Origin: a virus
Strand: one strand, 5' to 3'
DNA: 64,000 nt
IMG/VR virus record: IMGVR_UViG_3300017613_001944
Location: 18,212-82,211 of that record
Below, piece by piece: positions 1 to 56,365 of this stretch. A program made the position numbers and the translations under genes. Under the pieces are notes generated by a model, which saw only the letters and a program-made list of their open reading frames with translations, had not been told where the DNA came from and ran no database searches. The number at the start of each line of letters is the position of its first letter. The stretch's first letter is position 1.

Positions 1-23
1 GAGCGCCAAGAACAAATCAGAAC

Positions 24-60
24 GCCCCTGAGCGTCGTGAGCTCAGGGGTCTTTTTATTT
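24..60 (+). terminator. Intrinsic terminator-like hairpin upstream of the structural operon
   Basis: Stem CCCCTGAGC/GCTCAGGGG (25-33/41-49) with a 7-nt loop, followed by CTTTTTATTT. Confidence 0.6.
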
Positions 61-72
61 CAGGAGGATCAG

Positions 73-1473
73 ATGACAGGAAACAGGAAGTATCTACAAA
101 CCGCAGCAGCAGCGACAGGAAATGGCAGTCCCTTTGAAGTGAGGGGTTATGCCACAACGGTGATACAGATCACCGGAACCTTTGTCGGAACAGTCACATT
201 TGAGAGCTCTCTTGACGGGGCTAACTGGGTTGCTGTCCAGGCTGTCAATCTCAATGATGGCACGGTTGGAACCACGGCAACCGCCCCTGGACTTTACAGG
301 ATTCCAACGGCAGCGCTAGCAGACATTCGCGCCAGGGTCTCCGCTTGGACCAGTGGCACTATCACTGCTCAGGCTCGTGGCGTCAAGCAGGGCGCAGGAT
401 TGAGCTTGGCTGACGTTGACATCGGCGATGTGGAAGATGTCATCATCACAGACATCGAGGGCTTTGATACCGTCAAGGGCCAAGCTACGATGGCAGAGTC
501 TCTCCCCGTAGTAGTCGCCAGCGACCAACCTGGGCTGTCTGTGGTAGGCGGTGGCACAGAGGCGGCTGCCCAGCGGGTCACAATAGCCAACGATTCAACC
601 GGCCTGGTAAGCGTAGACGATGGGGGAGGGGCGCTCACGGTAGACGGAACCGTGACGGCAAATCTTAGCGTAACGGACAACGCAGTCCTAGATCAGATAG
701 AGCTTAATACTGATCCATTGCTGGTTGTGGGCGGCGGCACGGAAGCAACCGCGCAAAGAGTCACTATAGCCAACGATTCAACCGGCCTTGTAAGCGTAGA
801 CGATGGTGGTGGTTCTTTCACTGTAGATCAGGCCACTCACGACAACCTCAACGCAAATGCAAATCTCCAGGTAGCCGACGCTGATGTAGCTGCTGGCAAC
901 CCTGTATTCACAGACATGCGTGCCATCTCGGGGATTGCCCCGGTACTATTACTTCTCGATGGTGACAGGCATGGTCAGATGGACGTGCTCACTATTGCCG
1001 CCGGGGAAAACCACATAGGCCAGGTGGGCAGTACGGGGATATCAATCGCCCAGATACCCACCGTTACAGCAGGGGCTTACGCTGCCGACGATAATGTCGG
1101 TGGGCTCTTGACCTTCGCCAATGCCGCCAGAGTTAGTGGTGGCGGTGGGGTCATCAAGACTGTGACTATCGTAGATGACGCCGAACAAGATTCCCAACTG
1201 GAGTTGTGGCTCTTTAACCAGACCTTTACCCAGGGGGCTGACAACGCTGCTTGGACGGCGGTGGAGGCTGATCTCGAGAACGTGGTAGCTATCATCAGCA
1301 CTACGGGGGGAGAGTACTTCTCGGGTAATGGAAACTCTGTTTGCACCATAGAATGCTCTCTAAGATTTGACCTGGACGCCACAAGCCTTTTCGGAAGACT
1401 GGTGACCAGAGACACACCCACCTACGCGGCAACAGATGATGTCACGGTGATAGTTGGACTACTCCAGGACTAA
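73..1473 (+). CDS. Virion structural/decoration protein with an internal 30-aa repeat
   Basis: GGAGG RBS then ATG at 73 (the ORF track starts at 37); G/A/T/V/D-rich beta-type sequence; VVGGGTEA.AQRVTIANDSTGLVSVDDGGG occurs twice. Confidence 0.6.
   Translation: MTGNRKYLQTAAAATGNGSPFEVRGYATTVIQITGTFVGTVTFESSLDGANWVAVQAVNLNDGTVGTTATAPGLYRIPTAALADIRARVSAWTSGTITAQARGVKQGAGLSLADVDIGDVEDVIITDIEGFDTVKGQATMAESLPVVVASDQPGLSVVGGGTEAAAQRVTIANDSTGLVSVDDGGGALTVDGTVTANLSVTDNAVLDQIELNTDPLLVVGGGTEATAQRVTIANDSTGLVSVDDGGGSFTVDQATHDNLNANANLQVADADVAAGNPVFTDMRAISGIAPVLLLLDGDRHGQMDVLTIAAGENHIGQVGSTGISIAQIPTVTAGAYAADDNVGGLLTFANAARVSGGGGVIKTVTIVDDAEQDSQLELWLFNQTFTQGADNAAWTAVEADLENVVAIISTTGGEYFSGNGNSVCTIECSLRFDLDATSLFGRLVTRDTPTYAATDDVTVIVGLLQD
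541..813 (+). repeat. Intragenic duplication (~90 nt, two copies at 541-630 and 724-813)
   Basis: Shared core ATAGCCAACGATTCAACCGGCCT.GTAAGCGTAGACGATGG. Confidence 0.85.
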
Positions 1474-1479
1474 AAGCAT

Positions 1480-2184
1480 ATGTTATCAGGAATAGGCGCT
1501 TATCACGACGTAGTAAACACGGTACTGGCTACAGACCCCATAGCTTTCTGGCCGTTGTGGGAGGGGACTGGTGCAACAGCTGCCTGTCTCATCAACCCTG
1601 CTCAAAACGGCACTTACACAGGAGTGACTCTTGGAGATACTCTGACGCCGTGGGGAGAGCAAGCACCGTTCTGGGATGGAGCTACCGACTTTTGTTCCAT
1701 CCATTCGGCAACTCTTGAGACAGCATTTAACGATGATGAAGGATCTGCTGCGATATGGGCACAAGTGTTCAATGCCGGTGTATGGACTGATGGTGTGACA
1801 CGCAGGGCATTACAGATCCGAGACAGTGGCGCAAACCAACTGTTTTTCACTAAAGTGGTTGCGAATGATACACTCACGTTTTCATACACGGCAAAAGACA
1901 TCGCTAAGAACCCCATATCTACGACCTCTTGGATGTTTCTTGGTATGAGCTGGTCGCTATCTGCTAATGAAGTTAAGTACTTTTATAACGGAGCTCAGGA
2001 AGGCGCTACGCAAATCTATGCTGGTGGATGGACAGGATCAACTCCGACACGTTGGAATATAGGCTGCTTTGATAACTCTATCCCCAACCTAATTTGGCAC
2101 GGCTGGCTTGCCGGTGTTACTCTTTGGGACACGGTACAGGCAGAGGCCACGCTATTATCCATCTACAACACAGGGACACCCTAA
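1480..2184 (+). CDS. LamG/concanavalin-A-like lectin domain protein
   Basis: PIAFWPLWEGTG, WMFLGMSW...VKYFYNG, IG...WHGWLAGVTLW pattern typical of LamG_3 domains. Confidence 0.7.
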   Translation: MLSGIGAYHDVVNTVLATDPIAFWPLWEGTGATAACLINPAQNGTYTGVTLGDTLTPWGEQAPFWDGATDFCSIHSATLETAFNDDEGSAAIWAQVFNAGVWTDGVTRRALQIRDSGANQLFFTKVVANDTLTFSYTAKDIAKNPISTTSWMFLGMSWSLSANEVKYFYNGAQEGATQIYAGGWTGSTPTRWNIGCFDNSIPNLIWHGWLAGVTLWDTVQAEATLLSIYNTGTP

Positions 2185-2239
2185 TGAGAAGTGATCGCCC
2201 AGGGTTTTTGCCCATTAAAGAAAAAGATCAAGGAAATAA

Positions 2240-5200
2240 ATGGGACTTCTAACAGGAACAAGACGCGGATTAATAGGCGGAACAAGAATAAGACCCTTCG
2301 ACTTCGACCTGGATGCCACCACCTTCACCGCAGGGATGGCAAAGCGTACTGCGCCAGGCCCCTTCACCGCCGCCCCGATTGTGCAGGGGACTTGGGCATC
2401 TGAGGTGACGACCAGGGACCAGCTTACCGGTCCCGTTGCAACAGCTGTCCATGATCTTTTTGAGGACACTGGCGACGCCTATCAAGGCACTTTTGTTTTT
2501 TGGGTAACGCCAGAGTGGGACGGTGATGATGGAAAAGAGCACCGGTTAGTTGGGTTAGGCAATCATGCCTACGTTTTCAAGAGTACTGGTGGCTACCTTG
2601 TCTTTATGTTCAACGATGATGGAGCTTGGTCTAGTACGAGCGTTGATATTTCTGGCTGGTCGGCAGGTGCTACTTATAATGTGGTGGCCAGATGGGATGT
2701 CAAGAACACGCTAGATGGGACTAATTATGCCTGCATTTCCATCAATGATGTTCATTCTTTTGGATACACAACAGCAATAACTCCAGCCGACATGGATAGG
2801 GTGCTGGTTGGGGATTACTCAAACAACAAGCCACCCAATGCCATCATCGAAGGACTCACCATCTACCGCCGCCCCCTCTTCGACGGCACTTACGGCGTGG
2901 ACGCCAACAGCGGAGTGGATGAGATCAACGCCATCTACGCGGCGGGTGCTGGCGCAGACCCGTGCTTGATAACGGGTTCGTGGGATGCGGTGTTCTGTCT
3001 GCCCACTGACAGCGCGGTAGGCGCGTTGGCGACGGGAACGGGTGAGGCGTGGAGCCACCCGCACAGTTCGGCGGTACTGAACCACTGGATAGCGGAGGAT
3101 GGCTATTACGGTGGTGGGCAGTGGGCGCTTATCGGTAACGCATCCAATACAGGGGTCAACTGCGGAAGCGCGGCGGCTTTGGATGATTTACCACTGGCTG
3201 ACTTTACCGTGGAAGGTTGGTTCCGCTGTGATGGGGGTGGAAGTGGTCACGACGGGGCGCTTGTATGGAAAAGCGGTGGATGGGACACTGACGGATTTTA
3301 TCTTAATATCTACAATGGATATATCTCTGTAAGAATCAATTTTAACAATACTGATGTCGTGATGAACACTACCCCGACCTACAACGACAGTGCTTGGCAT
3401 CACTGGGCGCTAGACTGGGATCAGGGAACTCTCACTGCCACACTATACGTGGATGGTAAAGAGGAGGCCACCGGCACGGCTGTCGGTGCGTATCAATCAG
3501 ATGCAGCCGCAGAGTTCAGGATTGGAGTAGAGGGTGATTGGGGCAATCCGTTCAATGGCGCTATGGGTTGGGTGCGTCTTTCTGATGTTAGGCGCTACAC
3601 AGCCGATTTCTTACCTTCCCGCGCATTTCCTGGTGCTGACGGTAACACTGTTGAGGCGTGGAATATAAACGACGGAACCGGCGCAACAGTGGTTGCACAA
3701 GTCACATCGCCGGGGAACGACGGAACCGCTGCCAATCCCGAGTGGGAGCAACAGTGGTGGCCCACCGGCACGCCGGTGATCGCGCCGTGCTTGAACTTGA
3801 CAGCAGATTGGGCAAATGTGAATGGTGGATCAGGGGCCAATATTGACGATATGCCAACAGGTGATTTTACGGCAGAGCTTTACTTTTGCTATACAGATGC
3901 TGTTGCCTGGAATGTTATTGCTCAGAAGAAAACGGGGGGACTGGGCTGGTCCCTTAGTTTTGGCAGCAGTAATAAAACGCTCTTTACTACTTTTGAATTT
4001 AATACAACAGATGCGGCTTCAGAAACAGTGGCTAATACAGTCCAACCTGGTAGATGGTATCACATCGCAGTCACTTTTGATGGCGGCACAACCGATACGC
4101 CTATAATCTATGTGAACGGAATAAACAGATCGTCTTATTCGACTGCTGGTGTTGGTGTGTACCAAGCTGATGCTGCACAGAACTTTCTTGCCAGTAATGC
4201 AGCGACTAGAAATTTTAGATATGGCTGGCTTCGCCTCTCTGATTCAATTCGATACACTGATACCTTTGTTCCCAACAGCAGGGCCAACCCGCCAGGAAAT
4301 GACGCCAATGCACAATTGCTTTGGAATATGGACGACGGAGAAGGCACAACCGTTACAGATACAAGTGGAAACGCTTATCACGGCTCTATGTCGGCGGCAA
4401 CTTCCGAGGGCTGGCTCAACACCCCCGACATGCCCACAGTCGCACCCGGCGCACGCGAATACCAGTGGGGCTACGCCATCGGCAGCGACGGCGCTAACGA
4501 CGGGGTGATCCAGAACTTGGCAGGACTGAGCGCGGGTGATGATTTCGTGGCTCGCATCCCCATTCGGTATGAGGATGTGAACGCGCAGCCGAGCATCCTT
4601 GTGTACGACGAGATTGGCGCGGCTAATATCACCAACTTCCTTGGACCCAAGCTCACAGGCGTTCACAGCGGTGGGAACAACAGCGCAACTCTCATCGTCG
4701 CGACAGGCGCTTTCCCTCAGAGCCTAATAGGAGCTGCACTATACAACATCACCGATGGATCAAGCACTACCATCACCGCTGTGTCAGGAGACATGACGAC
4801 GATCACAGGTGTGTTGTCTGGCGGCACCGACGACGATTGGGACACGAACGATGTGTTTATGATCGTCCCTGATCCGACGTGGGTGTGGTGCGAGACGTTC
4901 ACCTGGGAGCTTCCGGCAGGCTGTACGGAGATGAGCGTGCATCTGCGTAACGCGGCGGGGTTGGGCGTGCTGTACTGGAACCAGGCGGAGGTTCAGGAGA
5001 ATCTTGTCACTAATCCGTCAATGGAAGATCAGCGGTTGTGGGACATTGATCTTGAAACAGCAGACTTTTCCCAGTTCGACGCCACCACGGATGTGGACGG
5101 AGATATGACAGTGGGAGGCGCTGGCGCATTAGCCGGTTCTTCTAACGGCATCTCGTTCCTTGTTGATGATGCTAACGTCATGTATGCTGACAAGAACCAG

Positions 5201-6571
5201 ACTAACCCAGCGTCTGACGAGTTTAGGCTCCGCTTTTTTGTTGACCCTAACGGGTATACGCAAAACGACACTCAGGAAACAAGGTTGGCGCAGTGGCTGG
5301 ATACCGGGGCTGGACTTTACACATGCATTATCGCTCTTAGGGATGATGCAGGAGCGCCGTCCTTCAAGATGCACTATTGCGATGACGCCGGTTACGGAGG
5401 CGGTGACGTTTCGGCAGAAATCACGGATGATCCACACTATGTAGAGTTCCACGTTGTTAGAGCGACAGGCGCTGTCGCCGCTGATGGGACGGTACAGTGG
5501 TGGATTGATGGAGTGGACCAGGGGACAGTCACAGGTATAGACAACTGGGACCTGTTCGCAAACATGGACGTAGTTCGTGTGGGGGCAGAAGCAGTTGGGA
5601 CTGGCGGATCAGGTACGATCTTTATTGACGAGATCACGGCTAACGACACAGGAGAAGAAATTGGACCTACGTACATTCCGATGGGGTGGAGTAATTCAGG
5701 TCTTGGTGCAGGGGATTCGGTTCAAGATAATGCAGAGCCGCATTCTGACTCGTCTTGCGTGGAATTTGTTACCGCACCGAACGCTTCTGCACTTTATTAC
5801 AGCGTTAGTTTTGCTCCGGCTCCGGCGTTCGTTGGCATAGGTGGGTGGGCGCGTGAAACCGCAGGCAATATTATGTTGCGCGATGCTAGTCAACGAGCGA
5901 TTCAAAACACACTCAGCACTAGAGCAGAGCTTGAAGCCTCTGGCGATGTGTGGCAACACCTTACTGGTGTTGTGAGACAAGATAGTGGCGGTGGCTGGTT
6001 TGCTTTGCGTAGTCATGAAGCCAGCTCCAGTGGTCGTTTTGATGACGTTTATGGTTTCCGTCTCGACGACGTATCCCTCACCGTCACCCCCGCGTCGGAG
6101 GCGAACAGCCTGGAAAGCGGCGGGATTCGGGTGGATGGAACGGATGACTTAGCTCAGCCCCTTTTAGGAATGACGCCAACGCGATTCCGCATTCGCTGGC
6201 GTTGTATTCCAAGGCACGGCGCAGGCGATTTTGAAAAGTTCGGCGGTGATGTATGGATGTATGCTTGGCAGGGTGTGGGCGGCGAATATCTCTATGTGGA
6301 TTGTGTGTCTGACACAACCATTAGGCTCGGTTTTGACGATGGCGGGGGTTTTCACGGCGCAAACTGGGACGCAACGGGAGTTATTGCAGCCGATACGGAA
6401 TACCTGTTTGAGATTAGAACTGTTCCTACTCGAATGCAGCTTCTTGTTGATGGTGTTGTAAGGTCTACAATAAATACACCGATAAACTTTGGTGACTTTC
6501 CCGCCAATATCCATTGGGGTGTGGATGCTTGGTCGCTGGGTCAAATTGACGCCGTATTCCTTGAGCCATAG
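2240..6571 (+). CDS. Large multi-LamG/carbohydrate-binding virion adhesin (1443 aa)
   Basis: Repeated LamG signatures (DFTVEGWF..WHHWAL..LYVDG; DFTAELYF..WYHIAVTFD..IYVNG; RLSD..RYT), NLVTNPSME CBM-like start. Confidence 0.7.
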   Translation: MGLLTGTRRGLIGGTRIRPFDFDLDATTFTAGMAKRTAPGPFTAAPIVQGTWASEVTTRDQLTGPVATAVHDLFEDTGDAYQGTFVFWVTPEWDGDDGKEHRLVGLGNHAYVFKSTGGYLVFMFNDDGAWSSTSVDISGWSAGATYNVVARWDVKNTLDGTNYACISINDVHSFGYTTAITPADMDRVLVGDYSNNKPPNAIIEGLTIYRRPLFDGTYGVDANSGVDEINAIYAAGAGADPCLITGSWDAVFCLPTDSAVGALATGTGEAWSHPHSSAVLNHWIAEDGYYGGGQWALIGNASNTGVNCGSAAALDDLPLADFTVEGWFRCDGGGSGHDGALVWKSGGWDTDGFYLNIYNGYISVRINFNNTDVVMNTTPTYNDSAWHHWALDWDQGTLTATLYVDGKEEATGTAVGAYQSDAAAEFRIGVEGDWGNPFNGAMGWVRLSDVRRYTADFLPSRAFPGADGNTVEAWNINDGTGATVVAQVTSPGNDGTAANPEWEQQWWPTGTPVIAPCLNLTADWANVNGGSGANIDDMPTGDFTAELYFCYTDAVAWNVIAQKKTGGLGWSLSFGSSNKTLFTTFEFNTTDAASETVANTVQPGRWYHIAVTFDGGTTDTPIIYVNGINRSSYSTAGVGVYQADAAQNFLASNAATRNFRYGWLRLSDSIRYTDTFVPNSRANPPGNDANAQLLWNMDDGEGTTVTDTSGNAYHGSMSAATSEGWLNTPDMPTVAPGAREYQWGYAIGSDGANDGVIQNLAGLSAGDDFVARIPIRYEDVNAQPSILVYDEIGAANITNFLGPKLTGVHSGGNNSATLIVATGAFPQSLIGAALYNITDGSSTTITAVSGDMTTITGVLSGGTDDDWDTNDVFMIVPDPTWVWCETFTWELPAGCTEMSVHLRNAAGLGVLYWNQAEVQENLVTNPSMEDQRLWDIDLETADFSQFDATTDVDGDMTVGGAGALAGSSNGISFLVDDANVMYADKNQTNPASDEFRLRFFVDPNGYTQNDTQETRLAQWLDTGAGLYTCIIALRDDAGAPSFKMHYCDDAGYGGGDVSAEITDDPHYVEFHVVRATGAVAADGTVQWWIDGVDQGTVTGIDNWDLFANMDVVRVGAEAVGTGGSGTIFIDEITANDTGEEIGPTYIPMGWSNSGLGAGDSVQDNAEPHSDSSCVEFVTAPNASALYYSVSFAPAPAFVGIGGWARETAGNIMLRDASQRAIQNTLSTRAELEASGDVWQHLTGVVRQDSGGGWFALRSHEASSSGRFDDVYGFRLDDVSLTVTPASEANSLESGGIRVDGTDDLAQPLLGMTPTRFRIRWRCIPRHGAGDFEKFGGDVWMYAWQGVGGEYLYVDCVSDTTIRLGFDDGGGFHGANWDATGVIAADTEYLFEIRTVPTRMQLLVDGVVRSTINTPINFGDFPANIHWGVDAWSLGQIDAVFLEP

Positions 6572-6651
6572 GAGAGTATGAGTGAGTGGATCGTGCGGTA
6601 TTTTATCTAGTAGAGGAAAAGACTTTTCTGATAATTTTCAGGAGGGACAAA

Positions 6652-7062
6652 ATGACAGAGTATGATTTCAGATATCAGTTGGAGGCTCTCGAGGCCAAGA
6701 ACGATGGGACTGGAGTAATCAAGCATCAAACTGCTGCGGTGTCCAGACCATCCGACGCTTTGCCAGAGGATGGTTGGAGTGTGATTGGCGGAAGACGCAA
6801 AGAGATTCAGATCCATCACGTTGACTTGGCTGTGGTTAATGCCATGGACCCCGGCGCTGCGCGGAACCAGGCTTACAAGGCGTTGCTGGTGTCAAGTCTT
6901 AACTCAACCTTTGAGCCGGTGCTTGGGTGGGATGGGGATTCTTTGGCGCTCTTCATGGCAGAGAATGATGCTGCTATGTCGGTGTGTGAGGATGCTGTGG
7001 CATACCTGGCTACCATCGGGGCTTTCAATTTCCCAGAAAATCCTATTCCCTTTAACGTGTAG
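6652..7062 (+). CDS. Hypothetical protein (possible fibre-associated)
   Basis: GGAGG RBS then ATG at 6652. Confidence 0.55.
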   Translation: MTEYDFRYQLEALEAKNDGTGVIKHQTAAVSRPSDALPEDGWSVIGGRRKEIQIHHVDLAVVNAMDPGAARNQAYKALLVSSLNSTFEPVLGWDGDSLALFMAENDAAMSVCEDAVAYLATIGAFNFPENPIPFNV

Positions 7063-7071
7063 GAGGTCGGT

Positions 7072-7440
7072 ATGATTGTGCCAGATGCGTATTCTCTTAA
7101 AATGATTATCAATATCCTTGCTGATGGGCGTACTGTCTCGTCACCAGGTCCCAGGGCGGCGGAGACAGGTACTTTAACGGAGGGGTATGGCGGCTTACCG
7201 TTCCTGGTGAGCCCCGGCTCAACCACGCCTGTTGGCCTTGGCACGATCACTAGACCAAAGTTTGTCGGGGTGTGGGGGGATGAGGGGATTAGCTTCAAAA
7301 CCTCTGGCAGCGGAGATGAGATCAGCGCCAACCCCTTCGCCTTCATCGCGAATATCAGTGATGGTATGGATGTCGTCAGTCTTCAGATTGTTAACGCAGA
7401 TACAGTCTCTCATAACGTGATAGTTATGGCGGCAGAGTAA
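7072..7440 (+). CDS. Hypothetical structural protein
   Basis: AGGAGG RBS; in the operon. Confidence 0.55.
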   Translation: MIVPDAYSLKMIINILADGRTVSSPGPRAAETGTLTEGYGGLPFLVSPGSTTPVGLGTITRPKFVGVWGDEGISFKTSGSGDEISANPFAFIANISDGMDVVSLQIVNADTVSHNVIVMAAE

Positions 7441-7673
7441 TGACTAAAAGAAAGACCACTAAGAAAAAGAAGTGGATCGGCAAGGCTTCCAAGAGTATCA
7501 AGAAGAGGGGTACTGCTGGCAGCTTTACCGCATATTGAAAGAGGGTGGGATATGGTGGCGTGACCACCGCCTGTATCGCCCAAGGTCTCAGGAGTAAAAA
7601 TCCGTCTATCCGTAAAAAGGCACAATTCGCCAAGGCAAGTAGGACTATAGCGCGGAGGAAAAAGAAGAAATGA
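7440..7673 (+). CDS. Small Lys/Arg-rich protein (77 codons) with in-frame TGA at codon 33; candidate selenoprotein, readthrough or nonsense allele
   Basis: Absent from the ORF track. MTKRKTTKKKKWIGKASKSIKKRGTAGSFTAY*KRVGYGGVTTACIAQGLRSKNPSIRKKAQFAKASRTIARRKKKK; TAATG overlap upstream and ATGA overlap downstream. Confidence 0.65.
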
Positions 7674-8065
7674 TTCCGGTTATTAAGACTAAAGAGGATA
7701 TCCTGACTGTGATGCGGCAGAACCGGCGATGGCGTCGGCGTCAGCGCATCTTTGCACTGCGACAGTGTGTGAAAACCCTGGGGCTCCTGCGCCAAAAGCT
7801 GGAGATAGATGCCAACGAAGGCTTTAGCATCCGTAGGCCATTACTCCTTATGTTGAAGAGGGAGGAAAAGATCTGGCAGGAACGGGGCGGCGAATGGCCT
7901 TTAAAGAAAGGGAAAAAACTGCCAGCAGAGAAGAAAGTAATAACAACGGGTCCCGCTAGGAAAATGGCTAAAGAGCATGATGTACCACTAGCCATACTTG
8001 AAGGGACAGGAAAGAATGGAAAGATCACCGTGAAGGATGTAAGGGAATATGTCCAAGCCCAGTAG
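7670..8065 (+). CDS. Protein with C-terminal E3-binding (peripheral subunit-binding)-like domain
   Basis: TGPARKMAKEHDVPLAILEGTGKNGKITVKDV matches the PSBD pattern. Confidence 0.65.
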   Translation: MIPVIKTKEDILTVMRQNRRWRRRQRIFALRQCVKTLGLLRQKLEIDANEGFSIRRPLLLMLKREEKIWQERGGEWPLKKGKKLPAEKKVITTGPARKMAKEHDVPLAILEGTGKNGKITVKDVREYVQAQ

Positions 8066-8402
8066 TGTCAAGATAGTACAGGGTGACACGGTTTATGATA
8101 CCGTACATGCTGCGTGGCTGTCCAATGGTCAGCCATCTCAGTTTGAGCGTTACGGAGAGTTTGGTGGAGCTCTATACAGGGTGCTAGACACCACAGAAAC
8201 GTATCCAGATTTCTACCAGTTCGGTTCACTGGGGCCAACAGTGTTCAGTGAGGACAGCGCCAGTGAAAGGCCAACCGAAAGAGGTTGGCATATCCTCAAT
8301 AGACGTTATCACTACTTGAAGGCGAAGTGGAAGTTCAATGGGAGGGTCAAGATAACCGCCCCCGAACTTCCGAATGAGTTGAGTCCAGATGAAACAGCGT
8401 AG
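8049..8402 (+). CDS. Hypothetical protein
   Basis: ORF overlapping its neighbours in the operon. Confidence 0.5.
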   Translation: MSKPSSVKIVQGDTVYDTVHAAWLSNGQPSQFERYGEFGGALYRVLDTTETYPDFYQFGSLGPTVFSEDSASERPTERGWHILNRRYHYLKAKWKFNGRVKITAPELPNELSPDETA

Positions 8403-8697
8403 TGATACTCTCAGGTTCAACAGCGAAGGCCAGGTAGTTCTTGGTGATATAAGAAAACCTGGACATGACTATCTGTGTGATATGTGCGCCGAGTTATTTG
8501 AGGTGAGATACAGCCAGGACAAGAAACCTATTGCCGTGACCTGTCCCATCTGCGGTTCTGGACGCACAAACAAGGTGTTGAATATGCCAGCCACCAGCAT
8601 TTGGTGGAAAGATGCTATGTCTAGCAGTGATGTGGGGGACTTGACTCCCAGAATGAGACGTGCATCAAAGAACAGGCATATTCAAAGAGATGAGTAG
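8389..8697 (+). CDS. FmdB-like zinc-ribbon protein
   Basis: DYLCDMC..FE..CPICGS..KVLNMP. Confidence 0.65.
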   Translation: MKQRSDTLRFNSEGQVVLGDIRKPGHDYLCDMCAELFEVRYSQDKKPIAVTCPICGSGRTNKVLNMPATSIWWKDAMSSSDVGDLTPRMRRASKNRHIQRDE

Positions 8698-8706
8698 GAG
8701 GGTTGT

Positions 8707-9090
8707 ATGGCAACTACTACCAGTTTTCTACAGTCTCGAGCCGTAAGAGAAGCGACGTTTACACTTGTCTTTGGTGATATAGCTGCTGCCAGGATGTTTA
8801 CTCTCCCGGCGGGAGCGCGGATCATCCACTGGATTGTAAATGTCAAAACAGCCTTTAGTGGCGGTACAACTACCATAGATGTTGGTACTACCAGTGCCAG
8901 CAGCAATGAGATTATCGACGGTGAGTCGGTAGCCGCAGTAGGAAATATTGACATTGGGGTTCATCTTCTTTTACCGGGTCACGAGACGACGGCGGTTACC
9001 GATATCTATGCGGTAGTCGGCGCTTCAAACTCAGCGGGTGAGGTTGATGTAAGCTGCGTGTTCTCACTAGAAGTAGACACGCCGAGATAA
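8707..9090 (+). CDS. Putative capsid decoration protein
   Basis: TLPAGARII..V.V.TAF.G..TIDVG motif; upstream of scaffold and capsid genes. Confidence 0.55.
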   Translation: MATTTSFLQSRAVREATFTLVFGDIAAARMFTLPAGARIIHWIVNVKTAFSGGTTTIDVGTTSASSNEIIDGESVAAVGNIDIGVHLLLPGHETTAVTDIYAVVGASNSAGEVDVSCVFSLEVDTPR

Positions 9091-9103
9091 GGGAGGAATA
9101 AGT

Positions 9104-9670
9104 ATGGCTGATGCGATTTTTGCACGCAAAGAGAGGGCCACTGATACCACATACGTGACCTTCAAACAAGTCCATTCCTACCGTGATGTCCTGGAAGGCG
9201 ACGCCTCCAGTGATGTCGATACCGGCAAGTCCCCAGTTACTCGCTGGCTCACGTATGTCTTTGACTACGCTGACCTCGCCAGCAATACTGGCGGAACTGC
9301 TGTTGTAACCAACTGTCTGGTTCCACGCGGATCTCTGATCGTAGACTGCTTCTTGCGTCTCGATGAGGCATTCGATGGCGACGGTGCGGATACAGTCGAT
9401 ATCGGTGACTCCAATGTCGCTGACGGATATGCGGTGGACTTGGACCTAACCACAGCTCCAGGTACTACGGCTCTGTGGTTCCGAGATGCGAATGCCGTTT
9501 ACATTAACAAGGCAAGCGACATTTCGGCGGGGGCCACTGGCGCTCAGTACTACAGAGAGGGTGGCGCAGTAATTGTCGCCATCGGAGAAACAGTACCTAC
9601 TCAGGGTAAAGCCATCGTGTTCTTGGTATCACCAAGCTACAACGAGCCGCTTAACTCAGAGTGGACCTAG
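9104..9670 (+). CDS. Putative capsid decoration protein (distant paralogue of the previous gene)
   Basis: LVPRGSLIVD..LDEAFDG...TVDIGD. Confidence 0.5.
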   Translation: MADAIFARKERATDTTYVTFKQVHSYRDVLEGDASSDVDTGKSPVTRWLTYVFDYADLASNTGGTAVVTNCLVPRGSLIVDCFLRLDEAFDGDGADTVDIGDSNVADGYAVDLDLTTAPGTTALWFRDANAVYINKASDISAGATGAQYYREGGAVIVAIGETVPTQGKAIVFLVSPSYNEPLNSEWT

Positions 9671-9682
9671 CAGGAGAGTTAA

Positions 9683-10465
9683 ATGACTGAAGAGCAGACC
9701 ACGAATGTGACGGATGGAAATGCTGCACCGGCAGTAACACCTGTTCCTGCTGTAACTACTCCCACTCCGCCGCCTTCAGGCCAGCAAACTACTTCTTCCA
9801 AGCCGAATTCAGATGTTGTGGATGCCGACGGGAAAAAGTGGAAAGATAAGTTTTATGGTCGCGAAGGTGCGATTGGGCAGTTGCAGAAAGAAAAAGCTGA
9901 GTTAGAGGGGATGTTTAAAACCCGCCTCGATTCCGCCCAACAACAGTTGGACGAAAGAGATGCGAGTATACTCGTCCTGCAAACCCAGGTTGGAGATCTA
10001 CAACCCCAGATCGAAGCCATTGGCGACCTCCAGGAACAAATCGACAATCTTAGTAAAGAAGCCGGGTTAGCCACCAAATACAAAATATTGACTGAGTACC
10101 CAACGCTGCTTGGTATGCAGGTAGAAGAAGAGATCCCCGCAGAGGGAGAGGGAGAACCCACGAAAGTGTTAGTTAACCCTCTAGTAAATCTCGTGGAGAA
10201 CTCAACTTTAGAGGGAGATGCACTGCGTGCAGAGATTGCGCGTCTTGCAACCCTTTATAGTAGCGTCCCCCAGCAAGAGACGCCACCTCCTGCTGCACCA
10301 GTAGCTCCCACACCCGCTGAACCCGTTCAGGACAGTCCTCAGTTCCATTACAACAAAGCAATGGAGATAAAGGACAGAATGAACTCGGGAGAGGGCGGGT
10401 TGATGGATGAGTTTAGGGAGGCTTGGGAGCAGTACAACAAATCGAATGCGGCAGCAACCGGCTAA
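9683..10465 (+). CDS. Capsid scaffolding protein
   Basis: Pro-rich ends, central acidic coiled coil, directly before the capsid gene. Confidence 0.65.
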   Translation: MTEEQTTNVTDGNAAPAVTPVPAVTTPTPPPSGQQTTSSKPNSDVVDADGKKWKDKFYGREGAIGQLQKEKAELEGMFKTRLDSAQQQLDERDASILVLQTQVGDLQPQIEAIGDLQEQIDNLSKEAGLATKYKILTEYPTLLGMQVEEEIPAEGEGEPTKVLVNPLVNLVENSTLEGDALRAEIARLATLYSSVPQQETPPPAAPVAPTPAEPVQDSPQFHYNKAMEIKDRMNSGEGGLMDEFREAWEQYNKSNAAATG

Positions 10466-10477
10466 GGAGGATTAAGT

Positions 10478-11932
10478 ATGGCAGGCGAAGTTGAAAAATA
10501 CCTCGACTCCCATCCATTTCGGATCTGGGATCAAAATAGTTGGGATGAGCGTTCTGCCTTGATCGACGTAGCTTTTCACGGCACCGACGTGTTGTTCACC
10601 CCTCTCATTGGCTCGACAATGACGATGCCAGCGGGGGTTGGTTGGAACGACTATTGGTACGCGGGAGCTGAGTTGGTCAAAAGCCATGTGAACCACGAAA
10701 CCATTGGTCGATACCAGAGAATGATGAACCCGCTATACGTGGACACACGACAGCGCAGGCTGCGTGCACGTTATCGCTGGGGCGTTAAGGCTCAGTACGA
10801 TCAAATGGATGAGATGGTCACACGGTACGGCAACGACAGCGATCAGTTCATCAGCCGAGTATTGCAAGCTCAGTTAGCCGACCAGATCGTCGGCATTACC
10901 GAGAAGGTAGCTCGTGACGGCATTCTCGACAACGCTCTTCACAAGTTTATCTTCGACGGTAGGGCCTTCGTGAATGGCACTGCTGACTATAGCGATATCG
11001 GCACCACCGCCGCAAGTGCCTTCAGCGTCAAGATGTTGGAAGACATCGCCCTCCGCATGAGCTATCGTGCAGAGGAGACTACGAAGGCTTGGGGCGACTA
11101 CGCACAACCCGTCCCTGGAAGCAACTTCCGAGGCTCAGTACTCGTGATGGTCACCACTGGTGTCTATGACAGTATCTGGAACTCTGAGGAGCAAGACTGG
11201 ATGATCGACCTGCGACAGTTGCAGGATGATCGGATCATCAATGGTGGTCGTGTGCAGTATCGCAACATGACTATCCAGGATACGGGGCACACCATGGTGC
11301 AATGGAATGCTGGCAATATCACCAGGCAGGTAGGCGTTAACGCTCCCATTCAATGGGGAGATGGCGCACCTGATCCTGATAGCACACTGGTTGACAGTGT
11401 GTGGCTGGCAGGACAGAGCTCCAGTGACATGGTTCACTATGTGAGCTGTACGGATCTAGGCACGTCCCAGTTTGCTGCTGGTGACTTTGTCTCGATTCAC
11501 ACACAGCGCACCAGTGCAAACGGTGTCACGAACGCTTGTGATCCTCTACACGGTAAGACCTTCCTTGCGGAGGTTTACAGTGTTGATGAGGATAACGAAC
11601 GCTTGACGTTCCGCAAACCCATCACCGAGCAGTATCTCGATGCGTTCAATGATGCTACCCATGGTCAGGTGTATGCTTACGTGACCAAGGCCCAGCACAT
11701 TCACCCCATCGTCATAGTCGCTGCAAGGGAAATGGTGCAGTTCGTAAAGCGCAATCACACTGATGGCAGCTTCATCCAGTTCAACCGCCCCACCGATAAC
11801 GACGTGGACTTCCCGTCGATTGAGCGTGTGACGGCTAACTGGTATGGCGAAGTCAACCCGTGGTCACTGGACCTCTTTGAGGTTTGGTACGCCGCTGGAC
11901 GCTTCGGAAACCGTGGTGCTGTGAGCTACTAG
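10478..11932 (+). CDS. Major capsid protein
   Basis: 484 aa after the scaffold, strong RBS; HK97-like segments with an apparent insertion domain; assigned mainly by synteny. Confidence 0.7.
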   Translation: MAGEVEKYLDSHPFRIWDQNSWDERSALIDVAFHGTDVLFTPLIGSTMTMPAGVGWNDYWYAGAELVKSHVNHETIGRYQRMMNPLYVDTRQRRLRARYRWGVKAQYDQMDEMVTRYGNDSDQFISRVLQAQLADQIVGITEKVARDGILDNALHKFIFDGRAFVNGTADYSDIGTTAASAFSVKMLEDIALRMSYRAEETTKAWGDYAQPVPGSNFRGSVLVMVTTGVYDSIWNSEEQDWMIDLRQLQDDRIINGGRVQYRNMTIQDTGHTMVQWNAGNITRQVGVNAPIQWGDGAPDPDSTLVDSVWLAGQSSSDMVHYVSCTDLGTSQFAAGDFVSIHTQRTSANGVTNACDPLHGKTFLAEVYSVDEDNERLTFRKPITEQYLDAFNDATHGQVYAYVTKAQHIHPIVIVAAREMVQFVKRNHTDGSFIQFNRPTDNDVDFPSIERVTANWYGEVNPWSLDLFEVWYAAGRFGNRGAVSY

Positions 11933-11933
11933 T

Positions 11934-12605
11934 ATGGCAACTGGAACATGGGATTCAGTTAACGATAAGCTGGATTTGTTTCTGGGTAAATCCTGGGAGG
12001 CAGATGGCACGAATCTAAAGTCATTGCCTCTCAGGATAGAGGCGTGGAACTGGGCACAACGGGTGTTTGTGCACCACACGCCGCTGCAACAATATGCCAC
12101 TCTGTCCTTCCTAGCAGGAGGGCGTTCAGCGCTTTTACCAGAAGACTACTATGCTATAGACGGCATATACGATTCTACGGAGGAGCGTTGGTGGAAGCCT
12201 ATGCGCCGTCGTCCAGGCGACATTAGGTACGTAGATGATGAGGTACTGGAGTATTGGGTGTGGGCTGACAAGATCATTCTCGAGAATGAATACACTGTCG
12301 GTGCTACGGATCTTACCCTTTACTACTGGGCTTATTATCCAGACGTTACTTATAATGTCGAGACGGTTGGCGAAGATGTGCTGATGACACCAAGATGGGC
12401 AGAGTTGGCATTGGCGCACCTGACCACTGCTAATATCATGCAGCCGATGGAGGTCTTTGCATCTGATATCAATCAGTACAAGATCCGCATCGAGTCAGGC
12501 AACCCGGAACACAATCCAAGAGCACAATCTGCACTATACCATCTCAATTGGTACAATATGCTGTTGTCTCTACACCCACCAGCAAACATGGAGAGGTCTG
12601 GATGA
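11934..12605 (+). CDS. Head-tail adaptor
   Basis: LPEDYYAI..., LTLYYWAY; follows the capsid gene. Confidence 0.55.
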   Translation: MATGTWDSVNDKLDLFLGKSWEADGTNLKSLPLRIEAWNWAQRVFVHHTPLQQYATLSFLAGGRSALLPEDYYAIDGIYDSTEERWWKPMRRRPGDIRYVDDEVLEYWVWADKIILENEYTVGATDLTLYYWAYYPDVTYNVETVGEDVLMTPRWAELALAHLTTANIMQPMEVFASDINQYKIRIESGNPEHNPRAQSALYHLNWYNMLLSLHPPANMERSG

Positions 12606-13156
12606 CACGTCCCGATAACGTGCCGACCACTCTCGAGGCGATGATTGCCGATGGATTGGAGGGTGCATGTACTGAGTACTGCATCACTAACGTCGATGAC
12701 GACGATCCATCAATGTCAGACCACGTTATTCTTGGTAAGCCTACGGAGGAGTTGGCTGACGAAATCGTAGTATCTATTCACATGCAACACCCTTTTGGCC
12801 CAACGATGGACAAAGACTCGGCTATCACAGGCAAGACTGGTGTTACAGGCTTTCACTTCCCGGATGAGACTATCGGTGGTGGGCGAGTGGATCAGATAAT
12901 GGGAGCCGTGCAAGTTAATATACGTCAGGATCTAGAATATGCTGACGCTATGTGGATTAGCGCGGTAGTCGTGGAGCGTGTCAAACAGGCCATCAATCTC
13001 CATCCAGATGTGCGGAGCTTGACGGATAGTTACGGTAATGTCATGTTCAAACTGCAAACTTTTAGAGCGATTGGCTATGCTAGCGGCGGTGGCGATGTCT
13101 CTGTCTATTTTAGATGGGTTGACTTTGTCGCTTACGTCAGCTACACCAATTGCTAG
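12602..13156 (+). CDS. Tail terminator/completion protein
   Basis: ATGA overlap; position before the tail tube. Confidence 0.5.
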   Translation: MTRPDNVPTTLEAMIADGLEGACTEYCITNVDDDDPSMSDHVILGKPTEELADEIVVSIHMQHPFGPTMDKDSAITGKTGVTGFHFPDETIGGGRVDQIMGAVQVNIRQDLEYADAMWISAVVVERVKQAINLHPDVRSLTDSYGNVMFKLQTFRAIGYASGGGDVSVYFRWVDFVAYVSYTNC

Positions 13157-13168
13157 GAGGGATAGGTT

Positions 13169-14356
13169 ATGGCTGGGTTACAAATGCCAAATGAGACCAG
13201 GTTTGGCTTGGGCATTCAACAGGGAGGTGGAGGCCAAGGTGTCTCTGACTACTTGAAGATGGCCCTGGGCTATGAGCATGTGGTCTCGAACAACGACAAC
13301 TTTTCATATTTCCCTCTAACCGACGTTGGTATCTCCCCTGTTAAAACTATGGGAACTCTTCCACCGGAGATTGGTGGACGAGCCCTGGCGACAGGAGCTT
13401 ATGCAACCGGCACTTGGGCTGCTGGCCCAGTGACAATGATCCCACGCTTGGACAATCGGCTGGGGTGGTTGCTATTGGCTGGAATGGGGGATGTCAGCAC
13501 AGTTGCGGATACGAAAGCTGAGAATCTCGCCATCCTTGGCGGGGTACACGGCGCTGATGCTGGTATCAACAGCCACATCTTCCAGTTCAACATTGACGAT
13601 CAGTACTTCGTCCCGTGGCTCACGCTACGTCGTTTGCTTCCGCATTCGACCACGGCGCTGCGCTTGGGCGAGACGTTCCAAGATGGAAAGATGGCTACCT
13701 TCACGCTCACGGCAACCGCCGGAGCGCCCTTGCAAGTAGACGTTGACTTCCTGGCTAGATTGAAGCAGAGTAACTACATCTTTGACTTTGATCCAAGCTG
13801 GGGTACGTTCGTCAACGATGACTTTGACAAGTTCGGCGTTACGAGTTGTGATGGTCACTTTAACGTGGAAGACGTGGCATTCGATGTCACTGCGGTTACG
13901 ATCACGGTAGGTAACATCTTGTTGCCTCCAACCCAATCAATCATCATAGGAACCACACATCCTGTTGACTTCCCGAATCTCAACAGGACGATGACGGTGA
14001 CGGCTTCCTTCCTGGTGAGCACTTGGGACTTCTATGTCAGCACTTTCGCTGGGTCTGCGGTTACGGCTACAGATTCCAATGTTGAGTGTGCGGTTTACAA
14101 GGCAGACATAGATGTGATGTTGGCGAGTCAAGTTAACATCACCGGATCTGAACCGTATCGTATTCGGATACTGTCCAACCCGAACGAGGATAATGCGGCT
14201 TGGACTGTTCAACCCGTTAGGATCATGCCTAACAGACCAGTGGTTGTTCAGGCTAACTGCACCGTCCTGGCGTTGGAGGGATCAAGTTGGGAGAACCATC
14301 CGGTTTTCATCGTTCTTCAAAACGACAAAGCCGACTACAACCTTCCAACACCATAG
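13169..14356 (+). CDS. Tail tube (major tail) protein
   Basis: Beta-rich 395 aa, synteny before the chaperone and tape measure. Confidence 0.65.
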   Translation: MAGLQMPNETRFGLGIQQGGGGQGVSDYLKMALGYEHVVSNNDNFSYFPLTDVGISPVKTMGTLPPEIGGRALATGAYATGTWAAGPVTMIPRLDNRLGWLLLAGMGDVSTVADTKAENLAILGGVHGADAGINSHIFQFNIDDQYFVPWLTLRRLLPHSTTALRLGETFQDGKMATFTLTATAGAPLQVDVDFLARLKQSNYIFDFDPSWGTFVNDDFDKFGVTSCDGHFNVEDVAFDVTAVTITVGNILLPPTQSIIIGTTHPVDFPNLNRTMTVTASFLVSTWDFYVSTFAGSAVTATDSNVECAVYKADIDVMLASQVNITGSEPYRIRILSNPNEDNAAWTVQPVRIMPNRPVVVQANCTVLALEGSSWENHPVFIVLQNDKADYNLPTP

Positions 14357-14368
14357 GGGGTTAGAGAA

Positions 14369-14677
14369 ATGGTACTGACTGTGGGCCAAATGCTCCAGTT
14401 GGTGCGTGCTGATCTTGAGAGTGAGACAGTTTCCATGAGCAGGAATGCTTGTATAAGGAAACTGTCTCATCTCGAGGGTCAGCTTGGACCTAGACTGGGG
14501 AAAGGGATTAACATCCCGGTAGAAGAAAAGGATGAGAGGCTTGTCCCATCTGAGGATTTTTCAAAGCGCTCTCAGAAGCAGAGCGTCGTCGCGGAAGATC
14601 CAAAAGATGCGGAAACTGTTGAGGAAAAAAAGAAACCAACCAGAAAAAGAAGGACATATACTAAGAAAGAGGTGTAA
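14369..14677 (+). CDS. Hypothetical protein
   Basis: ORF in the operon, basic C-terminus. Confidence 0.5.
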   Translation: MVLTVGQMLQLVRADLESETVSMSRNACIRKLSHLEGQLGPRLGKGINIPVEEKDERLVPSEDFSKRSQKQSVVAEDPKDAETVEEKKKPTRKRRTYTKKEV

Positions 14678-14679
14678 TA

Positions 14680-15165
14680 ATGGCTATCAAAGTCGCGCCT
14701 ATCTTCTCGGAGCCGCTGTATCTCGGTGATCTGAGCGAAGAAGTGGCTAAGATGGAGAAGGATTGTGACCAAAACGACAGAGCATGGATAAAAGCACGGC
14801 AAGCGACAGAATCTGATGAGATGGAGATCAGTTCACTGTACTCTAAATCAAAGACTGTGTGGACTGGTGAGGCTACGGAACAGGTCCAAGAAATCAACCC
14901 CAGGGAACGGCAGGCCATGGAGATCTACCTGTGTATGGTAGACGCCGGTAACATTGACGATGAAGATGGCCCACTGTTCACCTTTGTAGAAAATGGACCT
15001 TACGCCAAAGTGGACGGAGGCTTCCAGATATTCAAGGAAGCATACGGAAGACTTCCATCCGAGGCCACATTAGCTATGTTGCGTGCCGTGTATACTGTTA
15101 ACCCCGGCTGGGGTTGGTGGTTGAGCCAAGAGAAATCGGAGGGGGAAGCGAAGACGGGGGAGTAA
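14680..15165 (+). CDS. Tail assembly chaperone (gpG-like)
   Basis: Between tail tube and tape measure; slippery G GGG GAA near the 3' end. Confidence 0.65.
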   Translation: MAIKVAPIFSEPLYLGDLSEEVAKMEKDCDQNDRAWIKARQATESDEMEISSLYSKSKTVWTGEATEQVQEINPRERQAMEIYLCMVDAGNIDDEDGPLFTFVENGPYAKVDGGFQIFKEAYGRLPSEATLAMLRAVYTVNPGWGWWLSQEKSEGEAKTGE

Positions 15166-15506
15166 ACCCCCTTCTACAGCATCTCGATGTACTGGAGAAC
15201 GCAGTTCTTGAGTGGTTAGAGAGGAGCTTCTATGAGACGGCTGACCACGAGCTCCAGAAAGCTCTACGTAAACAAGCGCTGCTCCCAGTAAATATGCAAG
15301 CCGAAATGCCGGAGGCTTACCGCATCTGGCGTACCTGTCAAAGACATAGTGAGTTGTTCTGGCCTGGTGGTATAGCCAATCAACCGGCAACCCTTATGTT
15401 AGAGATGGAGGCTTGCGAGAGAGTTTCAAACCAGTTCCAGGATCAAATCAAGCGAATGTACGGCATTATCGAGGATAAAGGCAGTGGCGCTTCGCCCATC
15501 GGATAA
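15114..15506 (+). CDS. Tail assembly chaperone -1 frameshift extension (gpT-like)
   Basis: Open in the -1 frame across the end of the previous gene; no convincing start of its own. Confidence 0.6.
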   Translation: MVVEPREIGGGSEDGGVNPLLQHLDVLENAVLEWLERSFYETADHELQKALRKQALLPVNMQAEMPEAYRIWRTCQRHSELFWPGGIANQPATLMLEMEACERVSNQFQDQIKRMYGIIEDKGSGASPIG

Positions 15507-40323: not shown

Positions 40324-40481
40324 CTAGCACCTCCATAAACTCAGGCCATAGGTGTACCGAGTACATGCTAACCTTGTCCCACAGCCCCATCCTTGCCTTT
40401 TCTATTGCTACCTCTTTACTGAATGCGGATACGTGAAGGATAAACTCTCGCCGGTACTGTATCAGATATTCTTTTTGCAGC

Positions 40482-52610: not shown

Positions 52611-52846
52611 TCATCCTCCCCGGCGCGGTTCTTGTCGATGGTGCGCTGGACTTGGTCCATTGCACATTCGAGCTTTGCTTCTGGCATGAGAGTAATTACT
52701 GCCTCAATTGATAATGTCAAGTCTCCACCAGCATACAGCCGTTTGAAGAAGTGCTGTTGCTTTTCCGTACACAACATCAATCCTTTCTTCAATTCGTGTC
52801 TTGCTGTTTGAGACGACTCGTCTTGTATCTCCCGATAGCTTTTCAC
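52592..52846 (-). CDS. Hypothetical protein
   Basis: Coupled ORF. Confidence 0.5.
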   Translation of the reverse strand: MKSYREIQDESSQTARHELKKGLMLCTEKQQHFFKRLYAGGDLTLSIEAVITLMPEAKLECAMDQVQRTIDKNRAGEDECTTEQ

Positions 52847-55490: not shown

Positions 55491-56365
55491 GTTTGATCCT
55501 TAGTTAGACTTCCTTTGGATCTGCCTAGAGCTTTTGCCCCCGTACCCGTTGATTGCGAGTCTTCGGTTAAGGGCTTATCCGGTAGTCTTACGACCACCAC
55601 CCCGGCACAACCGCCTTTTAGTTTACGGGTCTGGCGTTCGACCCATGCAGCAGGTTTACTCCACACTCTAGCGCACTCTTGCCCTGGCCTGGGAAAGATG
55701 ATTGCCTCGGCATGAACCCCCATCAACCTTGCGGGTATCAGGGGACCCAGATTCGCAATGCGTCTGGGCTTAGGTTATTTTTCTACCTGCCCTGGAGTCA
55801 GTCTTTGCATTTTACAGTACGATCCATATTCGTATGCTTGATTGCTCAAGCGATGCAACCAACAGCGACGTGCTGACCCCAGTGGTGGCGTGACTGTCTC
55901 CAGCCACGATATGCCACACGCCACTTGTGTTTCGGGGGAGCTACCCCTACCGCACCGTCCTTCGCGATCCCTGGCCTGGGCCAAGATCCACTTGAACTGC
56001 TACCCGCCCTCACCCGCTACGGCTTGGACTAAATAACTACCCTTTGGTGTACCTCTTCGCAGTTTGCTAGGTAATCTCTCCTGCCGGAGAGAAAAGCCCC
56101 TTACAGTGTTACCCTCGGGAGCCCTGTCCCATCTGCTTCAGAGTTAGCTTCTCCCCGGAGGAGAAGCCAAGCACCTCAGCTTGCCTGAGTGGACCACTTT
56201 CGTGGTGACGGTATGTTGGCTTTCCGTCTTTGGGCAACTTACGTTGCTTATCCTCAAGGATGTCAGGCCACCCTGTGTACTACCTATTCAATTATTAAAG
56301 ATTCCTGGGCTAAGAGATCGACCAGTTACCTTATCTCTTAGCCCACTTGCAAAGTGGTCCTCTAC
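55491..56365 (-). ncRNA. Large structured ncRNA (GOLLD-like), ~870-900 nt including leader
   Basis: Own promoter and terminator, no credible ORF, many hairpins with GNRA loops (GAAA, GUAA, GCAA), boxA-like leader. Confidence 0.65.

Follow-up and report, generated by a model that had tools for sequence, protein, structure and literature searches.

A small basic gene at positions 7440–7673 (+ strand) of a 64,000-nt stretch of DNA from an uncultured sediment phage most likely carries, within a phage structural module, a selenocysteine (Sec) codon whose decoding would depend on SelB. The stretch, hereafter the window, is the last 64 kb of the 82,211-bp IMG/VR record IMGVR_UViG_3300017613_001944 (GC content, 51%; CheckV completeness, 84%). 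The proposed Sec codon is an in-frame TGA at 7536–7538 (codon 33), followed by a hairpin at 7554–7568 that resembles bacterial SECIS (Sec insertion sequence) elements. In the mechanism that we propose, host SelB with Sec-tRNA(Sec) would bind this mini-hairpin during infection and selenocysteine would be delivered to the UGA, with translation proceeding to the true stop at 7671–7673 to yield a 77-residue product. Sec33 would there replace the first Cys of a conserved Cys-x11-Cys pair joining two short helices, and the mature protein, probably an internal (cargo-type) component of the virion, would probably contain a Sec33-Cys45 selenylsulfide instead of a disulfide. A first-pass annotation, made from the letters of the window, had put forward a phage selenoprotein with a bacterial-type SECIS at this site, and the comparison with relatives described below supports that proposal.

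The gene has 77 codons in a single frame and overlaps both of its neighbours: the TAA stop of the upstream open reading frame (ORF), at 7438–7440, runs into the ATG of the small gene at 7440 (TAATG), and the stop of the small gene, TGA at 7671–7673, overlaps the next ATG at 7670 (ATGA). The internal TGA is the sole interruption of the 7440–7673 frame and lies in the context FTAY*KR; 12 codons past it, the TGT at 7572–7574 encodes Cys45, the probable partner of residue 33. The deduced product is very basic, with 27 Lys plus Arg and no Asp or Glu. In the core of the hairpin, 7554–7558 pairs with 7564–7568 (GGTGG-CGTGA-CCACC) around the loop CGUGA (7559–7563), which begins 20 nt past the UGA and has G at position 2 and U at position 3; the minimum-free-energy (MFE) fold extends it to a stem-loop at 7543–7581, the lower stem of which is not conserved in other lineages with the TGA. 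The first-pass annotation had described the basic ORF with its TAATG and ATGA overlaps, the in-frame TGA, the Cys 12 codons on and the hairpin at 7554–7568 with its 20-nt spacing and its G at loop position 2, and every one of these statements holds.

Homologues of the small protein have Cys where the window has the UGA, as the first-pass annotation stated for similar small basic phage proteins. A protein database contained two small relatives (identities of 76% and 71%), each of which has a Cys there, and FTAYC stands in place of FTAY-TGA in P0004, in P0005 and in small basic ORFs from IMG/VR that have the same core. Likewise, in tblastn comparisons with phage records the match is an internal domain of crAss-like cargo proteins, with FTAYC opposite the FTAY-TGA of the window. 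With a profile made from 11 members, the number of representative clusters retrieved is 1339 at E ≤ 0.001 and falls to 221 at E ≤ 1e-10; proteins of 57–110 residues prevail, and some members are domains within larger proteins. Their profile motif is G-x-F-T-x-[YW]-C ... V-T-x-x-C-I ... R-K-x-A-x-[FL]-A, and the window protein fits it at the profile level. Across 119 aligned rows, codon 33 is C in 116 and A in three, with four of the C rows being TGA forms translated as C, and both Cys are among seven nearly invariant columns. The two are usually lost together, which argues that they form a bonded pair: with the same four TGA forms read as C, both residues are Cys in 115 rows, both are Ala in three and the combination is Cys-Ala in one, that is, the loss is joint (to Ala) in three of the four rows that lack one or both.

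The TGA form itself occurs in other phage lineages. With a DNA pattern (G-x-F-T-A-Y, TGA, G at +4 and V-T at +8/+9, leaving the hairpin arms unconstrained), we obtained five matches from metagenome contigs, all of them true family members and representing three distinct sequences (L019/L020, L021/L022 and L023), and none from GTDB genomes. An earlier, shorter TGA pattern had given eight matches in viral contigs, all by chance, and missed the forms with FTRY because it required FTAY. A scan of viral contigs with the protein profile found 47 loci, 46 of them with the motif; 44 of these have a TGY codon for Cys and the other two (L025 and L031), both FTRY, have TGA. After adjustment of the DNA pattern to FTRY, one further lineage appeared on three contigs, which are L072, from a metagenome-assembled genome (MAG), and L073 and L076, from IMG/VR, these two being 100% identical to L072 over the fetched parts. 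Including the window, the TGA forms amount to seven distinct sequences on 11 contigs with GC contents from 39 to 60%. The first-pass annotation had looked to relatives that share the TGA plus hairpin as a check, and six such lineages are thereby added to the window.

The contigs of L023 and L072 are syntenic with the window phage, with 33–65% amino acid identity between neighbouring genes, and the remaining TGA lineages have no detectable neighbour gene in common with it. In a tree of the family, the window sequence, L019, L025 and L023 group in one supported clade, joined by the Cys form L026, and L021 and L031 are placed elsewhere, with supported branches forcing at least two changes of state; the tree is built from 44 columns, being weak and too short to give the direction of the Sec/Cys changes.

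Coding continues after the UGA. For the 33 codons past it, all six pairs of four lineages show proportions of synonymous differences (pS) of 0.66–0.91 and of nonsynonymous differences (pN) of 0.20–0.32; these values cover the four first-found lineages, and the other three were inspected as translations. The residues kept just past the UGA are a K, then G at +4, F or Y at +5, and G-V-T, and no other internal stop occurs in the translated core of any of the 46 viral motif loci. As judged from these comparisons, the frame past the UGA is open and under purifying selection. The codon was also found in sequencing reads: a 223-nt Logan contig of depth 2, from a marine-sediment run, covers 7460–7682 with 0 differences and reproduces the TGA, and not TGC or TGT, at 7538. 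The search of sequencing runs listed this one run and no RNA run, and beyond the 223-nt contig little of the stretch was covered.

The TGA forms also share a hairpin. Counting from the T of the TGA, columns 19–23 pair with columns 29–33 around a 5-nt loop, and all seven TGA lineages show a stem of 5–6 bp, an N-G-U-N-A loop of 5 nt (CGUGA in six and AGUUA in one) and a spacing of 20 nt from the UGA. When a 6-pair helix is laid on the seven TGA rows, 90.5% of the 42 cells are paired, and in three pairs (6 cells) both partners have changed; the observed paired fraction and covariation score are each unmatched in 500 shuffles, and sliding the partner by 1–3 columns, as a control, leaves 21–55% paired. 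A count on four TGA rows gave 95% paired, and RNAalifold predicts the same helix. At the level of codons, +6 and +10 are reverse-complementary despite encoding differing amino acids (GGT/ACC, GGC/GCC, AGC/GCT and (T)CT/AG(T)).

Taken over the same columns, six TGY rows have 53% of their cells paired, and the pair 22–30 is intact in none of the six. Likewise, among distinct 45-nt stretches, all five pairs of the core stem are present in 5/7 TGA forms versus 0/42 TGY forms (Fisher p = 1.1e-5), the remaining two TGA lineages having four of the five core pairs and three further pairs, and the Thr codon is ACC in 7/7 versus 4/42. Because the pattern that found L072 required GG..ACC, the unbiased figures for the TGA forms are 4/6 fully paired (Fisher p = 7.7e-5) and 6/6 with ACC (p = 1.7e-5), and since the lineages are related all these p-values overstate independence. 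By these comparisons, the hairpin is specific to the UGA forms and is maintained by covariation. Some Cys forms show part of it: L026, which nests within the main clade of Sec forms, has retained ACC for Thr, and L004/L030 and L044 keep four of the five stem pairs. The partial hairpins of L004/L030 and L044 may be likened to remnant or nascent SECIS elements, and L026 possibly likewise.

The geometry of the hairpin agrees with what is described for bacteria. The legend to Fig. 2 of PMC13188914 gives, as a consensus for bacterial SECIS (bSECIS), a loop of 3–9 nt, a stem of 4–16 bp, a spacing of 16–37 nt between UGA and loop, a G at loop position 1 or 2 with, in most cases, G or U next to it on the 3' side, and an MFE of ≤ −7.5 kcal/mol. 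The window hairpin lies within all five of these ranges, with an MFE of −13.8 kcal/mol over 45 nt and of −18.6 kcal/mol over 60 nt, and six of the seven TGA lineages pass the limit on MFE. The closing G-C pairs come from the Gly (GGN) and Thr (ACC) codons, and the invariant Val codon, in Cys forms too, supplies with its first two bases the GU of the loop. The G-V-T motif of the family thus offers the core of a SECIS ready-made and suitably spaced from codon 33, which may explain the existence of Sec forms in this family.

The 82-kb record contains no selA, selB, selD or tRNA-Sec, and no tRNA genes at all; the host would therefore have to supply the decoding machinery. Among named genomes, a TGA form was found in one, an Anaerolineales MAG (L072, on contig C13, of 105.7 kb). 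This MAG contains a tRNA-Sec with anticodon tca and genes that exceed the curated cut-offs for selA (562 bits), selB (329 bits) and selD (380 bits). Moreover, the frame of its FdhA is crossed by one TGA, with the customary surroundings ...CARL-U-HS..., and has a hairpin GUGACC-GGUCU-GGUCAC (6-bp stem and 5-nt loop) starting 18 nt past the UGA, in architecture much like that of the phage. The GC content of C13 is 58.8%, versus 63.3% in a sample of the other contigs of the MAG.

How far these data favour Sec over other uses of the UGA has to be weighed against several rivals. The main residual alternative, which we consider unlikely, is a programmed readthrough or recoding of the UGA to a standard residue (Trp or Cys by a near-cognate tRNA, or Cys via a variant Sec-type system), with the hairpin working as a pause signal or stimulator. 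Continued translation is required by the conserved open frame and by the hairpin, but these leave the identity of the residue unspecified, and the GU of the loop would be fixed by the Val codon anyway. However, the UGA stands in for a Cys that is nearly invariant and is lost together with its partner, which fits Sec or Cys and not Trp; the hairpin conforms to the bSECIS consensus and is similar to the one in the FdhA gene of the candidate host MAG; and, if Cys were wanted, an ordinary codon for it would do more simply than recoding. Less probable still is that the UGA terminates translation, giving a 32-residue N-terminal peptide plus a C-terminal peptide by reinitiation, or the short product only. 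There is a GTG at 7545, three codons past the TGA, with AAGAGG before it, and, recoding of the SelB type being inefficient as a rule, some truncated product would be made anyway. Nevertheless, the spacing between AAGAGG and this GTG is zero, and what is encoded between the UGA and any possible restart is itself conserved. The first in-frame ATG, GTG or TTG of L019/L020 comes no earlier than codon +18, so a restart cannot account for the conservation past the UGA. Furthermore, the two Cys behave as a pair that spans the UGA, and a simple split of the gene gives no reason for a hairpin confined to the TGA forms.

A single TGY-to-TGA change or a sequencing error had been named in the first-pass annotation as the alternative to Sec, and this rival, taken to include a recent pseudogene and an assembly error, fares badly here. 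One substitution leads from TGY to TGA, and few reads (depth 2) back the codon in the window, but this explanation is very unlikely: 11 contigs of different assemblies, with seven distinct sequences among them, have the TGA in common, both codon and frame are still kept across lineages in which synonymous sites are saturated, the core of the 46 viral motif loci is free of further internal stops, and the Logan contig has the identical TGA. The least probable of the rivals, to which we give almost no credence, is a genome-wide use of TGA as a sense codon (table 4 or 25, or recoding of late phage genes). Certain groups of phages, the crAss-like ones among them, are known to recode stop codons, and distant homologues of the domain do occur in crAss-like phages. 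Yet 30 of the 101 long ORFs in the whole record stop at TGA, including the small gene itself, and the TGAs at 12605, 23166, 26453 and 27679 are ordinary stops, as the first-pass annotation had stated; there is no suppressor tRNA in the record, and the other contigs with the TGA form have normal long ORFs under table 11. This stop usage excludes a genome-wide change of code for the record.

A SelB-decoded Sec codon is thus the reading that we prefer, and a number of points weigh against it. The dependence on SelB and the identity of the inserted residue as Sec are inferences from sequence comparison. The hairpin of the window, taken alone, is unremarkable, since its 71-nt fold has −18.6 kcal/mol versus −17.4 ± 3 kcal/mol for shuffles (z = −0.39; 60/200 shuffles as stable), and the signal comes instead from the comparison with relatives. 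In L031/L074 the hairpin is weak, with four of the five pairs and −6.0 kcal/mol over 45 nt, which makes this the lineage that fails the MFE limit, and at least four of the five core pairs are present in 7/42 TGY forms, compared with 7/7 TGA forms. The GU in the loop does not count as independent evidence, because it is supplied by the Val codon and is present in Cys forms. No Rfam family matches the hairpin, and a permissive threshold gave three rows at chance level; a match would be unexpected, given the diversity of sequence that reviews ascribe to the SECIS elements of bacteria (PMC13188914). On the 44-column tree, the seven TGA lineages are not independent origins, and four of them fall in one supported clade. 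The read support at 7538 is one contig of depth 2, from a run that may be the source sample of the window. With respect to the host, the check for Sec genes covered the MAG that holds the relative L072. The link between C13 and the MAG is one of binning, because C13 looks phage-like from end to end, with no bacterial flanks, and the presence of selB, although consistent with decoding by the host, discriminates little, because 40/61 sampled genomes of the order are over the cut-off.

An AlphaFold2 model obtained with the 119-row alignment shows four helices, with a mean predicted local distance difference test score (pLDDT) of 75 and of about 88–90 in the core. Residue 33 is placed within the helix 28–36 and Cys45 within the helix 43–51, and the selenylsulfide would connect these two. 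A Foldseek search of the model against the PDB returned nothing at E ≤ 0.001. We can also outline, tentatively and as a possibility that we would not yet bet on, what such a bond might do. In phages of Sec-competent, largely anaerobic bacteria, host SelB might place Sec in an internal virion protein, where Sec33-Cys45 would serve as a staple or redox latch between helices; the bond might be made or kept under conditions that preclude a disulfide, and entry into the next host could open it. Codon 33 and its surroundings would have been pre-adapted by the Gly-Val-Thr codons (GG-GU-AC at SECIS distance), and the quality of the particles would be tied to the selenium status of the host. Such a pre-adaptation would explain why several lineages, with GC contents from 39 to 60%, came to have the Sec form or have kept it.

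The location of the protein in the virion is suggested by the place of the small gene among structural genes. It is preceded by a gene for 122 amino acids (7072–7440, + strand), the stop of which overlaps its start and which is conserved in L024 and C13, and followed by a gene for 131 amino acids (7670–8065, + strand), whose start overlaps its final TGA and which has no PHROG match. Further genes of the module are a fibre-like gene of 1443 residues with Laminin_G, upstream of the small gene, and, downstream, a tail tube gene and a tape-measure-sized ORF of 2415 residues. We found no blastn match for the region 6586–8700 among 50,697 phage records, and no Pfam or PHROG family for the small protein when it and its neighbours were scanned. 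A weak match to Fusello_VP2_Capsid in 2/11 member rows (best E, 2.9e-4) was taken as compositional similarity and was not used. The structural genes in window positions 1–16000 are very divergent; a PHROGs scan of 15 ORFs from the structural region gave one match at the thresholds used, to a family of no known function.

Some additional observations concern the gene order and the record. A search for relatives with the 484-aa neighbour returned one locus, L024, a syntenic relative with 64% identity in that neighbour; in it, the slot of the small gene is occupied by an unrelated ORF of 87 amino acids (L024:2288-2551). Contig C13 carries two diverged copies of a module with tail-tip and tape-measure genes, at about 2.6–15.2 kb and 97.8–105.7 kb (L098-L103). 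These are not a simple terminal repeat, because the homologous proteins differ in length (e.g. 1019 and 1060 residues), and the double module could reflect a chimeric assembly, tandem phages or a duplicated module. Finally, a crude scan of the record for in-frame TGAs that join two open stretches of at least 25 codons each, outside long ORFs, gave 23 bridged frames, among them that of TGA 7536–7538; the other 22 include window positions 40434, 42888, 52611–52704 and 55839–55891, with several at 55–56 kb.

Selenocysteine insertion is well understood in cells, and the window gene most likely represents a new selenoprotein family and a new setting for this known mechanism. If so, a gene of a phage structural module would need host SelB, and the family would be one of selenoproteins that is not an obvious redox enzyme. 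Gene callers would systematically split such phage genes, the UGA form would be a sequence marker of host range, its hosts being necessarily Sec-competent, and the production of virions would be linked to a trace element. The family offers, besides, a clean natural experiment, with putative Sec and Cys forms side by side and a hairpin that comes and decays with the UGA. Our literature searches found no phage selenoprotein, and phrases for viral selenoproteins led only to papers on animal viruses. The virus-encoded selenoproteins named in the review PMC8310308 are only two poxvirus glutathione peroxidases (GPx), the words phage and virus are absent from the prokaryotic selenoproteome reviews PMC9312934 and PMC13188914, and in PMC8879037, on a Salmonella phage, two genes are annotated as tRNA-Sec but no selenoprotein is named.

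Among known proteins, the only solved relative is cargo protein 1 (gp45) of crAss001 (PDB 7qog, 7qoi, 7qoj, 7qol and 8ckb), whose residues 376–424 match the window family (profile E, 2.6e-14) with both Cys (FTAYC...VTEAC). Unlike the window protein, gp45 has 842 residues, in which the domain is embedded, a Cys and not a UGA, and a shorter spacing between the Cys; nor is the window genome a crassvirus, there being no DNA match to the 50,697 phage records. According to the passages on gp45 in PMC10172136, this protein was detected in virions by mass spectrometry and lies inside capsid and tail, where its residues 425–552 bind the portal inside the capsid and residues 214–245 are in the tail barrel. 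The stretch that matches the window family belongs, by the same passages, to an unresolved part just before the portal-bound 425–552. Where the first-pass annotation suggested a DNA-condensing core protein, the relation found is thus to a domain of an internal virion protein, and a role in condensing DNA would be speculative.

A parallel for the dependence on the host is that of the poxvirus glutathione peroxidases (molluscum contagiosum and fowlpox), virus genes that rely on host Sec machinery and, in the case of the fowlpox GPx, have the SECIS within the coding sequence (PMC8310308). The poxvirus selenoproteins, however, are captured eukaryotic GPx genes with eukaryotic SECIS elements, whereas the window has a bacterial-type SECIS in a phage structural-module gene for which no cellular counterpart was found. 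Mixed Sec and Cys forms and remnant SECIS elements are known from bacterial families (PMC1794560); although the window family is viral, and its 44-column tree gives no direction of change, it likewise has putative Sec and Cys forms in one family, with L026 and L004/L030, L044 showing partial features. In all, the window gene differs from bacterial selenoprotein genes in lying on a phage without Sec machinery, in encoding a 77-residue, very basic and helical protein that is no recognisable oxidoreductase, and in a loop GU made ready by a conserved Gly-Val-Thr coding motif. It is like them, and like their prototype, E. coli fdhF, in having a UGA where homologues have Cys and an in-ORF hairpin directly downstream, with the 5-nt loop, the G and then U at loop positions 2–3, the stem of 5–6 bp, the 20-nt spacing and the compensatory changes in its arms that are features of a bacterial SECIS.

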